Source of the DNA: an uncultured Myxococcales bacterium
Lineage (GTDB): Bacteria > Desulfobacterota > Binatia > UBA1149 > CAITLU01
DNA: 47,029 nucleotides
Assembly: GCA_964475235.1 (NCBI GenBank)
Contig: CAYYVZ010000001.1
Coordinates: 1 to 47,029 of the forward strand
Direction of reading: 5' to 3'
Shown piece by piece: positions 1 to 41,969 of the stretch. Each line of letters opens with the position of its first letter. Positions within the stretch are counted from its first letter, which is position 1. The translations under genes and the position numbers were made by a program. The notes under the pieces are model-generated. The model was given only the letters and a program-made list of their open reading frames with translations, was not told the origin of the DNA and did no database searches.

Positions 1-879
1 GACATCTTCCGCGTGACGGCGGCCGGCGTCGTCAAGCAGATGACCTTCGATCCGAACGGCGGAGCCTGCGACAGCAGCGCGCCGTCGATCAACGACGCCG
101 GCTCCCTCATCGCCTTCGACTCCGACTGCAACCTGACCGGCGAGAACGAAGACCTCGCGATCCAGATCTACACGGTGACGGGCGCGGGCGTGGACGGCGG
201 AACCGTCAAGCAGCGCACGTCCGGCGACGACCAGTCGTGCTCCAGCCTGAGGGCGTCGATCGACGCCGAAGGCACGATCCTGGCCTACCACAGCGACTGC
301 AATCCGGTCGGCGAGAATGACGACAGCAGCGAAGAGATTTTCACGGTCACGATCTCGCCGTCTCCGGTCGTCGAACAGGTGAGCAACGGCGACGACGACC
401 TCTGCGCGAGCGGCGAGGTGCATCTCGCGGCGAGCGGCCTCGCGCTCGCGTTCACGAGCTACTGCGAGCTCGGGAGCGAGAACAGCGACGGCAGCGTCGA
501 AGTCTTCCATGCCGGCGTCGGCTTTTCGTCGAGCGCGGTCTTCGCGGTGACCGAAGGCTTCGAATGCGCGAGCGTGGCCGGCGGCATCAGCGCGGACGGC
601 ACGCTCGTCAGCTTCGACAGCGACTGCGATCCGCTGGCCGAGAACGCGGACGGCAGCATCGAGGTCTTCCGCGCATCGACGTGTACCTGCGGCGCGCCCT
701 CGACGCGCGGCGAGCCGAAGGCCAGCGACGCGCTCTTCATCCTGCGCGCCGCGGTCGGCAGCAGCGTCTGCGTGCTCTGCAGCTGCGACGTGGACGACAA
801 CGGCCAGATCACTGCAATCGACGCGCTGCGCGACCTCAAGGCCGCGGTCGGCCAGCCGATTCCGCTCAACTGCCCGTAA
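1..879 (+). CDS. Secreted PD40/TolB-like beta-propeller repeat protein, 5'-truncated by the window edge, with a C-terminal dockerin-like double repeat
   Basis: Frame 1 is open from nt 1, and 'DIFRVT' continues the repeat, so the GTG at 13 is not the real start. About 5 repeats of '(F/Y)(D/H/T)S(D/Y)C(N/D/E)-x3-EN-x-D-x-S-x-E(I/V)F' are present. The tail 'ASDALFILRAAVGS..CSCDVDDNGQITAIDALRDLKAAVGQPIPLNCP' carries the D-x-D-x-N-G-x-I-x3-D-A-L calcium-loop/helix signature of dockerins. Confidence 0.6.
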   Translation, partial: DIFRVTAAGVVKQMTFDPNGGACDSSAPSINDAGSLIAFDSDCNLTGENEDLAIQIYTVTGAGVDGGTVKQRTSGDDQSCSSLRASIDAEGTILAYHSDCNPVGENDDSSEEIFTVTISPSPVVEQVSNGDDDLCASGEVHLAASGLALAFTSYCELGSENSDGSVEVFHAGVGFSSSAVFAVTEGFECASVAGGISADGTLVSFDSDCDPLAENADGSIEVFRASTCTCGAPSTRGEPKASDALFILRAAVGSSVCVLCSCDVDDNGQITAIDALRDLKAAVGQPIPLNCP

Positions 880-28786: not shown

Positions 28787-29830
28787 CTAGTCGCCGCCGG
28801 TCAACGTCACCGCCACCGCGACGTTCACGTTGCGTACGCGGTTGCCCTCGAGATCGGATGCGTCGTCGACGACGACGGTAAAGTTCGCGGGCACCGGAAC
28901 CGGGGTGTCCGGCAGGAAGGAGCACTCGGCGAGCTCCACCGGATCGTCGAATCCTTCGAGCGAAATGAAGCCGAGCTGAAGCTTGCTCGTGGCATCGTTG
29001 GCGTTCGGCGCGAAGAGCACCGAGTCGATGCTGCTCGCGCACTCGACTTCTGCCCCGTCTCCGACGAAGCGTCCGGGCGCCGACGTATAGTTCACCGTCA
29101 GCTGAAGCGCGCCGAGCGGCTCGACCGTCTGGTCGAGCAGGAAGCGGATGGCGATCGGCTCCTGGACGATGGTCGTACTGGTCGTCGTGCCGCTGGTCGA
29201 AGGGGTAGTCGCAACGGTCGTCGACGTGGTCGTGGTCGACGGCGGCCCGCACAGCGGGGAGTGCTGGCAGTTCGGGTCTTCGCAGTCCTCGAGGCCGTTG
29301 CCGTCGTCGTCGACACCGTTGTCGCAGTCCTCGCAGGAGCGCGGGTCCGCGTCCTCGTCGATGCAGAGCGGCGGGCCTCCGTCGCAACCGGCGACGGTGC
29401 ACACACACTGCGCGGTGCTCTCGGAGTTGATGTCCGAGACGTCGACCTCCGTGAACACGCACTGGAACAGGTTCGTGACGGCGGGGATCGTGCACCCGGT
29501 GATCGTCACGCGCAGCGCGTCGCCCGCGCCGAGCTCGGTGAACGTCGCCGTGCAGCCGCTCGTCGAGAGCAGGGCGTCGATCGAGCAGTTGGGTCCGCCG
29601 CTGGAGAGCCGCGCGAGGATCGCATCGGCGTCGGCGAGGTCCACGTTGACGATGACGCTGTTGCAGCTGCCGTCGCCGTTGATGCCGAAGAAGAGACGGA
29701 TCGCATTGCCGCCGCCTCCGCCGTCGCCGCTGCCGCCGCAGTGGGCAAGCGCAGCGGCCAGAGCGAACGCGAACGCACCGTTCGCAACTGTCCGGGCGCC
29801 GCTACGGATCGCGTGAAGCCAGCGAGTCAT
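28787..29830 (-). CDS. Secreted protein or probable lipoprotein: two copies of a beta-rich domain separated by a Cys/Asp-rich metal-binding-like motif and a Thr/Ser linker
   Basis: ATG at 29830. 'AFAFALAAALAHC' followed by the Gly-rich 'GGSGDGGGGG' gives an atypical lipobox (LAHC). 'CIDEDADPRSCEDCDNGVDDDGNGLEDCEDPNC' lies at 29249-29386 and 'PPSTTTTSTTVATTPSTSGTTTSTT' at 29171-29245. The N- and C-terminal domains share 'AIR(L/F)', 'C-x-S-ID', 'L(R/Q)-x5-G..........(Q/E)C-x-F'. Confidence 0.65.
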   Translation of the reverse strand: MTRWLHAIRSGARTVANGAFAFALAAALAHCGGSGDGGGGGNAIRLFFGINGDGSCNSVIVNVDLADADAILARLSSGGPNCSIDALLSTSGCTATFTELGAGDALRVTITGCTIPAVTNLFQCVFTEVDVSDINSESTAQCVCTVAGCDGGPPLCIDEDADPRSCEDCDNGVDDDGNGLEDCEDPNCQHSPLCGPPSTTTTSTTVATTPSTSGTTTSTTIVQEPIAIRFLLDQTVEPLGALQLTVNYTSAPGRFVGDGAEVECASSIDSVLFAPNANDATSKLQLGFISLEGFDDPVELAECSFLPDTPVPVPANFTVVVDDASDLEGNRVRNVNVAVAVTLTGGD

Positions 29831-40048: not shown

Positions 40049-41755
40049 TCAGCCCGGACAGTTCAGCTCTACTGCCTGGCCGACCGCCTTGCGCAGCACG
40101 CGCAGCGCGTCGCCCGCCTGGATCGCTCCGCTCGAATCGACGTCGCAAAGCGAGTCGGGACACGCGACCGCCTGGCCGACGGCGTTTCGCAGCACGCGCA
40201 GCGCATCGCTCGCCTGGACGCTTCCGTTCAGGTCGGCGTCGCCGCAGCTCGCTTCGGCCTGGCAGGTCGCGTCGCAGCCGTCGCCCGGCGCGGTGCCGCC
40301 GTCGTCGCACTCTTCGACTCCGCTGCGCACGAATCCGTCTCCGCACTTGGAATTGAGGCAGGTGGACGGACACGCATCGGTATCGATCGCGTTTCCGTCG
40401 TCGCACTCTTCCGGACTCTCGACGTTGCCGTTGCCGCACGCGGCGATCTGGCCGGCGAGGTAGCGAACGACCATCTGGTAACTGGCCTGGCCGTCGTCGG
40501 CGAGACCGCCGGCGAGGATTCGTCCGTTGTCCTGGAGCAGAAGCGAAGAGAGCTCCTCGTCGAACGTGCTCGCAGCGCTCGTCACGGCAATGCCGCCGTT
40601 TCCGAAGCTCGAGTCGGGCTGGCCGCCGGTCGTGTAGCGCACGAGCGTGAAGGCGCCGGCCCGCCCGGCATTCGAGACGCCGCCGGCGACGAGCTTTCCG
40701 TCGGCCTGGCGTGCGAGCGCGCGCGCAGCGTCGATCTCCCCGGGCGAGACGTCGGTTCGTGCGATGCCGCCGCTTCCGAAGCTCGCGTCCGGCTGTCCCG
40801 TGCTCGTGTAGCGCACCACCACGAAGTCGCCGTCGGCCTCGCCGGCAACGACGACCTTGCCGTCCGGCTGAACCAGGAGTGCGAACGCCGCGTCGTCGCG
40901 CGCCGAAACCGACGTCGTCACCTTGCCGCCGGAGCCGAAGGATCCGTCGGGCGTGCCCGCGGAGGTCAGCCGGGCGAGCGCGATGTCCGAAGAGCTCTTC
41001 TCCGACGCGCCCGCGAGCACGACAGCCCCGTCGAGGGGCTGGACCGCCACGGCACGGGCGACGTCGTTTCCGCCGAAATCGACGGTGGCGATTCCGTCGC
41101 CGGAGAAGCCGCTGTCGGGCTGGCCGCCGGTGGTGTAGCGCACCACCGCGAAGTCGCTGTCGCTTCCGTCGTCGGCGCGACCGGCGGCGAGGATTTTGCT
41201 GTCCGGCTGCTGCGCGAGCGCGAACGCTTCGTCGTCACCCTGGATGGTGGTGTTCGCGGTTCCGCCCGAGCCGAAGCCGGCGTCGATCGCCCCGGCCGTC
41301 GTCAGGCGAGTGACCGCGAAGCGACTTCCCGCGCGGCCTGCCAGCACGAGCTTGTTGTCGGCGCTCTGTCGGAGCATCGCATGGACGACCTGGAGCGTGT
41401 CGGCGCCGACCTGCACCGACGCGACACCGGCATTGCCGAAGGAAGAGTCTACCGTCCCGCCCGTCGTCAGCCTGGTGAGACGGAGCGTGGCGCGGTCGGC
41501 GGCTGCGTCGTCGATGGTGGCGACGAGGAGCTTGCCGTCCGCCTGAAGCGCCATCGCGACGACTCCTTCGTCCCCGATCGCCGACAGTGCGACACCCTGC
41601 GTGGCATAGGTACCGTCGGGGTCGCCGGGGGCGGCAAGGGCGCGAGCAACGCCGACGACGAGCGTGCAGACCACGGCGGCGACGCGCACCGATCGCGCAC
41701 GCGCGCTTCGGCCGGGCGAAGCCGGGCGACTTCGGGGGGAGTGTTGCCGGGTCAT
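40049..41755 (-). CDS. Secreted delta-60-repeat protein with two Myxococcus-type Cys-rich repeats and a C-terminal double dockerin-like module
   Basis: ATG at 41755 preceded by GGAGGA. About 7 repeats of '(R/Y)-x-T-x-(G/A)G-x-(P/V/I)D-x-(S/G)FG-x-(G/A)G...A-x-A(L/V)-x-(Q/R)-x-DGK(L/V)(L/V)(A/V)(A/G)G', the delta-60 signature. 'CGNGNVESPEECDDGN...C' and 'CGDGFVRSGVEECDDGG...DGCDATC'. Tail 'CGDADLNGSVQASDALRVLRNAVGQ...CDVDSSGAIQAGDALRVLRKAVGQAVELNCPG'. Confidence 0.8.
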   Translation of the reverse strand: MTRQHSPRSRPASPGRSARARSVRVAAVVCTLVVGVARALAAPGDPDGTYATQGVALSAIGDEGVVAMALQADGKLLVATIDDAAADRATLRLTRLTTGGTVDSSFGNAGVASVQVGADTLQVVHAMLRQSADNKLVLAGRAGSRFAVTRLTTAGAIDAGFGSGGTANTTIQGDDEAFALAQQPDSKILAAGRADDGSDSDFAVVRYTTGGQPDSGFSGDGIATVDFGGNDVARAVAVQPLDGAVVLAGASEKSSSDIALARLTSAGTPDGSFGSGGKVTTSVSARDDAAFALLVQPDGKVVVAGEADGDFVVVRYTSTGQPDASFGSGGIARTDVSPGEIDAARALARQADGKLVAGGVSNAGRAGAFTLVRYTTGGQPDSSFGNGGIAVTSAASTFDEELSSLLLQDNGRILAGGLADDGQASYQMVVRYLAGQIAACGNGNVESPEECDDGNAIDTDACPSTCLNSKCGDGFVRSGVEECDDGGTAPGDGCDATCQAEASCGDADLNGSVQASDALRVLRNAVGQAVACPDSLCDVDSSGAIQAGDALRVLRKAVGQAVELNCPG

Positions 41756-41822
41756 GAAAAGCCGTCCTCCGGATGCGCGCGGGAACCTGCCTCGCTCAGT
41801 ATTTCGAAGGGCTGTGGGGGCA

Positions 41823-41838
41823 AGCAATCGCCGTGCCG
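41823..41838 (-). promoter_or_regulatory. Sigma-54 (-24/-12) promoter candidate for the delta-60 gene and the downstream block
   Basis: The minus strand reads CGGCACGGCGATTGCT, compared with the consensus TGGCACG-N4-TTGCW. Only the first T differs, and the GG-N10-GC spacing is exact. It lies about 70-85 nt upstream of the ATG at 41755 and 170 nt downstream of a GAFTGA-containing activator gene. Confidence 0.7.
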
Positions 41839-41969
41839 CTGCAGGTGTCCGGACGGGGACCCGGCGGCTACTCTCCTCATTCGGCAAAACGCCTGCGCGG
41901 CGATCGCCGGGCAGGCCGCTTCGTCCGCGCCGGGCCGGGCCTCGAACTCGGCGGAAGCGCACGACTTTC

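Follow-up and report, generated by a model that had tools for sequence, protein, structure and literature searches.

A family of four-cysteine dockerins on exported proteins of an uncultured Binatia bacterium and a candidate receptor of predicted cohesin fold

In a 47,029-nucleotide stretch of DNA from an uncultured bacterium of the class Binatia (contig CAYYVZ010000001.1, assembly GCA_964475235.1; hereafter the window), the gene of a secreted delta-60 repeat beta-propeller protein ends in a 66-residue module with four cysteines which, judged by its sequence family and by its predicted fold, is a dockerin. We consider it fairly probable that this four-Cys dockerin represents a lineage-specific subfamily and serves as a general, portable docking tag on more than 100 exported proteins of this genome. 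As an explanation of the whole, we favour, with moderate confidence, a disulfide-clasped dockerin tag that docks on a second module, domain B, which is found on lipoproteins and has the predicted fold of a cohesin. Cohesin-dockerin pairs are a textbook case of modular extracellular assembly and are much used in protein engineering. To our knowledge, they have been studied almost exclusively in anaerobic cellulolytic Firmicutes.

The dockerin module and its family in the genome

An earlier note, made from the letters of the window, had pointed to two dockerin-like tails on secreted propeller proteins. The first lies at 40052-40249, as had been quoted, and forms the exact C-terminus of an open reading frame (ORF) that spans 40049..41962 (-) and ends in SCGDADLNGSVQASDALRVLRNAVGQAVACPDSLCDVDSSGAIQAGDALRVLRKAVGQAVELNCPG, bases 40052-40249 encoding its last 66 residues. 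The second is likewise present, at the C-terminus of the 5'-open ORF 1..879 (+), the last residues of which are ...ASDALFILRAAVGSSVCVLCSCDVDDNGQITAIDALRDLKAAVGQPIPLNCP. The carriers and their modules, searched with Pfam Dockerin_1 (PF00404) and with a profile built from an alignment of 61 module copies of the genome itself (A1), are the following:

40049..41755, (-): gene of the secreted delta-60 repeat beta-propeller protein (TIGR02608, 7.6e-77; TIGR02232, 1.1e-15)
40052..40249, (-): four-Cys dockerin module, 66 residues, C-terminus of the delta-60 protein (PF00404, 24.8 bits when alone; profile A1, E 4.4e-26)
1..879, (+): carrier protein, 5'-truncated by the contig end, about four repeats that each contain Cys (F-[DT]-S-x-C-x-[LP]-x-x-E-N-x-D...); no PD40 assignment by Pfam
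679..876, (+): second four-Cys dockerin module, C-terminus of the truncated carrier (PF00404, 12.9-14.7 bits, below the cut-off of 22.9; profile A1, E 2.7e-27)

The database gene call for the delta-60 protein comprises 568 residues, starting with MTRQHSP..., and its N-terminus resembles a signal peptide. Seven delta-60 repeats are followed by two Cys-rich acidic repeats (~40250-40465; TIGR02232/DUF4215) and then by the dockerin, the two repeats of which are nearly identical and contain the calcium loops DADLNGSVQASD and DVDSSGAIQAGD, both canonical. The isolated tail exceeds the gathering score of PF00404 (24.8 versus 22.9 bits), as expected from the resemblance to type I dockerins that the earlier note had recognized. 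The score falls to 19.7 bits inside the full protein and is 23.7 bits (at 40091-40243) in a six-frame search of the genome; a PF00404 dockerin is not listed in the precomputed Pfam results for this protein.

The AlphaFold2 model of the delta-60 tail, computed from alignment A1, reached a predicted local distance difference test score (pLDDT) of 94.7 and a predicted template-modelling score (pTM) of 0.81, with helices at residues 16-26, 35-38 and 48-58. When this model was compared with the PDB by Foldseek, the 27 top matches were all dockerins (TMq 0.65-0.80), among them 4uyq_B with a template-modelling score (TM) of 0.79 and a root-mean-square deviation (rmsd) of 1.7 A. The tail combines a score above the gathering threshold, two repeats of a calcium loop (D-x-[DN]-x-[DNS]-G-x-[IV]-x3-D) and a helix, and a predicted three-helix fold, as type I dockerins do. 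Because Pfam and profile homology agree with the predicted fold, we assign the module to the dockerins.

The two tails of the window are homologous (phmmer E 3.9e-12 in a search of the genome's 59,003 six-frame ORFs), and the second owes its place in the family to its paralogs, through profile A1. The D-x-D-x-[NS]-G calcium loops ascribed to both tails exist twice in the delta-60 tail, whereas in the second tail loop 1 is degenerate (CGAPSTRGEPKASDAL; CGAPSTRGEPKASD) and only loop 2 is canonical (DVDDNGQITAID). Each repeat of the truncated carrier has one Cys and an E-N-x-D motif (FDSDCNLTGENEDLAIQIY, YHSDCNPVGENDDSSEEIF and so on). This protein had been labelled PD40-type, which Pfam does not support, since a scan of the 292-residue fragment at E<=1 returned a weak dockerin match and no other family.

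An iterated hidden Markov model search of the genome (5.13 Mb on 636 contigs, 67% G+C, 92.7% complete) found 120 modules in 118 ORFs, and an independent six-frame search with A1 found 125 places, so that roughly 2-3% of the genes carry a dockerin. The idea of a tag shared by unrelated proteins is borne out by this count, and the two proteins of the window are not a distinctive pair but merely two among ~118-125 carriers. The six-frame search with PF00404 gave 33 places at E<=0.01, the best with 38.8 bits; ~26 of the roughly 120 modules lie above the Pfam cut-off, and most copies escape routine annotation. Forty carriers were scanned with Pfam. Their domains are disintegrin/DUF4215, beta-helix, RCC1, PD40, delta-60 propellers and PPC, as well as multicopper oxidase, glucose/sorbosone dehydrogenase (GSDH), DPPIV, M43/M12B peptidase and LamG. 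No glycoside hydrolase family was listed among these 40 carriers, and a single weak match to Pectate_lyase22 was obtained (E 3e-4). Thr-rich linkers are common upstream of the module.

The anatomy of the module was derived from 89 full-length copies from this genome, the consensus being C-G-D-x-n-x-D-G-x-V-x-A-S-D-A-L-x-x-L-R-x-A-V-G-x3-C-x4-C-D-V-N-x-x-G-x-V-x-A-x-D-A-L-x-x-L-R-x-A-V-G-Q-x-V-x-L-x-C-P. Loop 2 is canonical in 78 of the 89 copies and loop 1 in 40. In a large subtype ('C-G-Q-P...P-K-A-S-D-A-L'), to which the second tail of the window belongs, the ligands of loop 1 are gone. The helix motif [AST][STG]-D-A-L-x-x-L-[RK], at the cohesin-contact positions of type I dockerins, is conserved in the 89 paralogs. 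A worldwide profile search matched 11,294 cluster representatives at E<=1e-3, of which 2,542 reached E<=1e-10; the four-Cys pattern is found in 126 of the best 150 matches. In one protein of the genome (C536:1-1008), a complete four-Cys dockerin at residues 155-227 is followed by a second one at 256-328, an arrangement that recalls the double dockerin of C. thermocellum Clo1313_0689 (8x39), which is itself among the fold matches.

Domain B as a candidate receptor

No Pfam cohesin (PF00963) was found at the cut-off in the genome, the best match being a weak one in a 1,598-residue ORF on contig C244 (14.7 bits, E 0.09). Among 31 sampled genomes of the same GTDB order, a Pfam cohesin appears above the cut-off in just two. 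A Pfam-type cohesin was therefore ruled out as the general partner, being absent from the genome and from 29 of the 31 relatives, which have 10-135 dockerins each. A cellulosome would have dockerins on glycoside hydrolases or other plant-cell-wall enzymes, as well as a scaffoldin built of Pfam-type cohesins; no glycoside hydrolase family was listed for the 40 carriers scanned, and no Pfam-type cohesin was found in the genome at the cut-off.

The most likely candidate for a receptor of the four-Cys dockerin modules is domain B. It was recognized on a putative lipoprotein of the window, which the earlier note had given as an example of a candidate receptor and which is organized as follows:

28787..29830, (-): putative lipoprotein, 347 residues, with a signal peptide, LAHC, a Gly-rich tether, domain A, an acidic Cys-rich spacer, a Thr-rich linker and domain B
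28805..29158, (-): domain B, ~118 residues, unannotated; two invariant Cys; cohesin fold predicted (pLDDT 95.0; 18 best PDB matches cohesins; no Pfam family)
29393-29707, (-): domain A, ~105 residues with 8 Cys, a small separate family

AlphaFold2 predicted for domain B a nine-stranded beta-sandwich (pLDDT 95.0). The 18 best PDB matches of this model in Foldseek were all cohesins (probability 1.00, TM(q) 0.53-0.69, E 1e-3 to 2e-2), among them CaCohA2 of C. acetobutylicum (6kgd_A), a cohesin-like module of C. perfringens (2jh2), a cohesin of A. fulgidus (2xdh) and Sca5 of R. bromii. The predicted model thus shows the nine-stranded topology of cohesins, at moderate TM.

The genome contains 23 copies of domain B in 18 ORFs, all with the two invariant Cys, and a second count gave 24 modules in 5.1 Mb. 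A lipobox is present in 5-6 of the nine N-termini read among the dockerin-free carriers of domain B (LGGC, LASC, LSSC, LAGC, AAGC), and in most of these cases it is followed by Gly runs; some carriers have two copies of domain B in tandem. The lipobox of the window lipoprotein, LAHC, is atypical. Moreover, domain B and a dockerin occur in the same ORF in 7 of the 18 domain-B ORFs. These fusions are of two types. The first consists of domain B, a Thr linker and a dockerin in 250-370 residues; in the second, seen in large proteins, domain B and the dockerin are joined directly, without a linker:

C41:2692-3549, C285:4914-5705, C33:4076-4825 and C73:12789-13904: domain B plus dockerin, first type
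C161:4540-7686, C95:9905-12346 and C152:3009-5294: domain B plus dockerin, second type

If the two modules bind each other, such fusions could serve as adaptors or assemble into chains, head to tail.

Domain A, which had no match in the Pfam scan, is found in six ORFs of the genome, always near the ORF start (positions 33-87), and stands just behind the lipobox in all three paralogs for which the N-terminus was read. An internal duplication in the window lipoprotein was considered and found no support in the sequence, domains A and B having no relation detectable with phmmer. The tightest neighbourhood of sockets and plugs in the assembly is a cluster at C307:126-6127, in which the gene of a lipoprotein with domain A and two copies of domain B is followed 33 nt downstream by a dockerin gene and then by two more domain-B genes. 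The dockerin of that cluster stands right after the signal peptide of its protein.

Within the GTDB order, both modules are present in 31/31 of the sampled genomes (18 genera), with 10-135 four-Cys dockerins and 4-34 copies of domain B per genome. The copy numbers of the two modules correlate with a Spearman coefficient of 0.87, and of 0.63 when genome size is removed. Of 61 genomes sampled evenly across the phylum, only the genome of the window and one genome of its family (2/61) had both modules, domain B being scored at E<=1e-8 and the dockerin at a strict 1e-20, and the other 59 had neither. The same was true of nine genomes of Myxococcota, Planctomycetota and other phyla that we had reached through the Cys-rich repeats. 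A query with the whole delta-60 protein returned mostly delta-60 or DUF4215 relatives in other phyla, in genomes without the module. One metagenome-assembled genome (CAZKRI010000015.1), which has 60 dockerins and 30-31 copies of domain B, falls in the GTDB order of the window together with two genomes recorded as 'Candidatus Binatia bacterium', and its NCBI label 'uncultured Myxococcales bacterium' is probably wrong.

Several points weigh against domain B as the socket of a calcium-aided docking tag. At the sequence level, neither the lipoprotein nor its separate domains had a Pfam match at E<=10, none of the 23 copies of domain B matches cohesin or any other Pfam family, and the PDB sequence search with domain B was negative at E<=10. 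An hhalign comparison with five cohesin matches from relatives, three of which exceed the Pfam cut-off, aligned 34 columns with 5% probability. Sequence homology between domain B and cohesins was accordingly rejected as not demonstrable. The Foldseek similarity is itself limited, with E values of only ~1e-3 and TM of 0.53-0.69, and beta-sandwiches are common folds. The co-occurrence is perfect but confined to one lineage, and because of this restriction it counts as one evolutionary event; in addition, both module counts scale with genome size. Neighbourhood linkage in the fragmented assembly is weak as well: of 11 dockerin-free domain-B ORFs, 4 have a dockerin ORF within 3 kb, and a single contig accounts for three of the four (permutation P 0.06), and the window lipoprotein is ~10 kb away from the delta-60 gene. 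Finally, loop 1 has no calcium ligands in 49/89 copies, and for that reason many modules may bind one calcium at most.

Some of these points could also be read in favour of a real dockerin fold with a partner other than domain B, namely another protein family, a Pfam-type cohesin that the 93%-complete assembly lacks, or a ligand that is not a protein, for example an exopolysaccharide or an outer-membrane glycolipid; the module might also serve mainly as a calcium- and disulfide-stabilized aid to folding or solubility. The lack of sequence similarity between domain B and cohesins, the loose gene neighbourhood and the degeneration of the first loop in about half of the modules fit this alternative, and dockerin-like modules without identified cohesins reportedly occur in many genomes, according to the 2009 work of Peer and colleagues in FEMS Microbiol Lett. 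We nevertheless regard it as less probable. A Pfam-type cohesin cannot be the general partner, given its absence from 29 of 31 dockerin-rich relatives. Domain B is the sole cohesin-fold family that we found, it is carried by lipoproteins and fused to the dockerin in seven ORFs, and its phyletic range is exactly that of the dockerin. Furthermore, the strong conservation of the cohesin-contacting helix positions in 89 paralogs suggests a shared protein receptor.

Cysteine pairing and the nature of the tail

The Cys ahead of each loop, which the earlier note had remarked on in the two window tails, proved real and general. The cysteine before loop 1 (C1), that after helix 1 (C2) and that before loop 2 (C3) are each retained in 86/89 copies, and the terminal one (C4) in 84/89. 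Of the conserved L-N-C-P ending proposed for the module, it is the Cys that stands; the ending as a whole is general only in the form [L/P]-x-C-P (L 56, N 26, C 84 and P 54 of 89).

Loss of cysteines among variant modules is informative on their pairing. In four of them, three in P0007 and one in the genome of the window, C2 and C3 are lost together and C1 and C4 are retained; in two modules of P0014, C2 and C3 (C-x4-C) are the only cysteines left. C1 immediately precedes the conserved Gly (C-G-D, position -1), and C4 is part of the C-terminal C-P. In known dockerins, an 'intramolecular clasp' links a C-terminal residue with the residue found at -1 (or -2/-3) relative to the conserved Gly; it stabilizes the calcium-bound dockerin and its cohesin-binding site, and its breakage lowers the Tm and cohesin binding (Slutzki et al. 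2013, PMC3821032). C1 and C4 of the Binatia module occupy exactly these clasp positions. The known clasps are non-covalent, made by stacking or salt bridges, and the Binatia module would have a disulfide in this place and a second one in the linker. Because of the patterns of joint loss and of the published position of the clasp, we favour a C1-C4 disulfide, that is, a covalent clasp, together with a C2-C3 disulfide closing a small loop in the linker; on the sequence evidence, this is probably the arrangement. One disulfide per repeat (C1-C2 and C3-C4), each loop being bracketed by its own Cys pair as the earlier note had pictured, was also considered, but the evidence leans to the former pairing. 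Two points count against C1-C4 plus C2-C3: it depends on a handful of variant modules, and the single bridge assigned by DSSP in the tail model, between residues 41 and 66, could also be compatible with C3-C4.

Another reading would make the tail a signal for sorting or secretion at the C-terminus rather than a binding module, recognized and perhaps cleaved off by a dedicated machinery, as is the case with PEP-CTERM/exosortase, MYXO-CTERM or the type IX secretion system (T9SS) and its C-terminal domain. Such a signal would be expected to match a curated model, to be strictly C-terminal and to consist of a hydrophobic helix and a basic tail. The module does mark a large and diverse set of exported proteins, and 67 of the 89 full-length copies, with their conserved C-P end, lie within 30 residues of the C-terminus. 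The remaining 22 are N-terminal (13) or internal (9), and some of these are followed directly by another folded domain. Neither a sorting-signal model nor any other model matched when both tails were scanned with NCBIfam, and their sequences contain no hydrophobic stretch or anchor, the helix and basic tail of such signals being absent. The confidently predicted dockerin fold and the two modules in tandem in one protein also contradict a sorting signal, which we judge very improbable.

Convergence, in the form of a generic EF-hand-like pair of calcium-binding repeats unrelated to dockerins, would fit the single-sequence Pfam scores near or below threshold (19.7-24.8 bits; 12.9-14.7 for the second tail) and a weak Pfam match to EF-hand_9, but is scarcely credible when ~26 paralogs exceed the Dockerin_1 cut-off with scores of up to 38.8 bits, the family profile A1 retrieves the C. 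thermocellum Xyn10B dockerin chains 2ccl_B and 1ohz_B from the PDB (E about 1e-3), and dockerins fill the fold search, the first other EF-hand protein following at rank 35 with E 7.7.

A proposed docking system and its known counterparts

In the mechanism that we propose, the cargo proteins would be exported and their dockerins would fold with calcium in loop 2, and in loop 1 where it is intact. In the oxidizing extracytoplasmic space, the fold would be locked by the C1-C4 and C2-C3 disulfides, the first as a covalent version of the non-covalent clasp of cellulosomal dockerins, the second closing the C-x4-C loop between the repeats. The two conserved helices of the dockerin would then dock, probably aided by calcium, onto domain B. 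Such sockets would be displayed, alone or as tandem copies, on Gly-tethered lipoproteins, the product of 28787-29830 among them, or on adaptor-like proteins that themselves bear a dockerin. Cargo such as the delta-60 propeller could in this way be hung on the cell envelope or chained there, in a cellulosome-style plug and socket for non-cellulolytic surface proteins. The disulfides, the calcium dependence, the binding and the localization are the parts of this account that we infer. More tentatively, the same scheme might describe a complete and previously undescribed envelope-assembly system of the Binatia, with ~10-135 exported dockerin proteins per genome, a cryptic lipoprotein-borne family of cohesin fold and possible head-to-tail chains, in other words a 'surface-ome' that follows the cellulosome principle in a lineage which is of Gram-negative type and not cellulolytic.

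Dockerins outside cellulosomes are already known, so the kind of module is not new; a 2009 survey by Peer and colleagues is said to have described cohesin and dockerin modules outside cellulosomes. In the literature searched, no paper linked dockerins with Binatia or Binatota. Three features are new with respect to that literature: a putative disulfide signature where the clasp is made, a family of this size in a Gram-negative-type lineage that is not cellulolytic, and a sequence-cryptic candidate partner of predicted cohesin fold on lipoproteins. The lineage is uncultured and globally distributed; its dockerins are mostly missed by standard annotation, and the likely socket is invisible to all sequence models. 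If the binding is true, it would reveal how the Binatia cell surface is organized, extend the cohesin family and supply, for designer scaffolds, an orthogonal docking pair that is locked by disulfides in nature and may be more robust.

The closest known counterparts of the module are the clostridial type I dockerins (PF00404), represented by Xyn10B (1OHZ/2CCL), ScaB of A. cellulolyticus (4UYQ) and CaDoc0917 of C. acetobutylicum (6KGC-F). Like them, the Binatia module has ~65 residues, two calcium loop-helix repeats and a short linker helix, and its model superposes on theirs with a TM of 0.7-0.8 and an rmsd of 1.6-2.3 A. It is likewise usually C-terminal behind a Thr-rich linker, it conserves [ST] at loop position 11 and L-[RK] at positions 17-18, and its nearly symmetric repeats would permit a dual binding mode. 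Unlike the cellulosomal dockerins aligned here, it has four near-invariant Cys (C-G-D..., ...C-x4-C-D..., ...C-P). Moreover, its loop 1 is degenerate in about half of the copies, its carriers are not carbohydrate-active enzymes, most copies remain under the Pfam threshold, and the host is a high-GC, lipoprotein-making bacterium of Gram-negative type.

For domain B, the non-cellulosomal cohesins of A. fulgidus (2XDH), C. perfringens (2JH2/2W1N) and the R. bromii amylosome (7URP/7UVG) are among the best fold matches, at ranks 2, 3, 5, 8, 9 and 11. As in those cohesin-dockerin modules, the plug-and-socket pair proposed here would work outside cellulose degradation. In contrast to them, domain B escapes every cohesin sequence model, has two invariant Cys and is lipoprotein-borne. 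The scale is also far larger than in the non-cellulosomal systems, with ~125 dockerin and 24 domain-B modules in 5.1 Mb, a number of dockerins per genome that presumably rivals that of the richest cellulosome producers.

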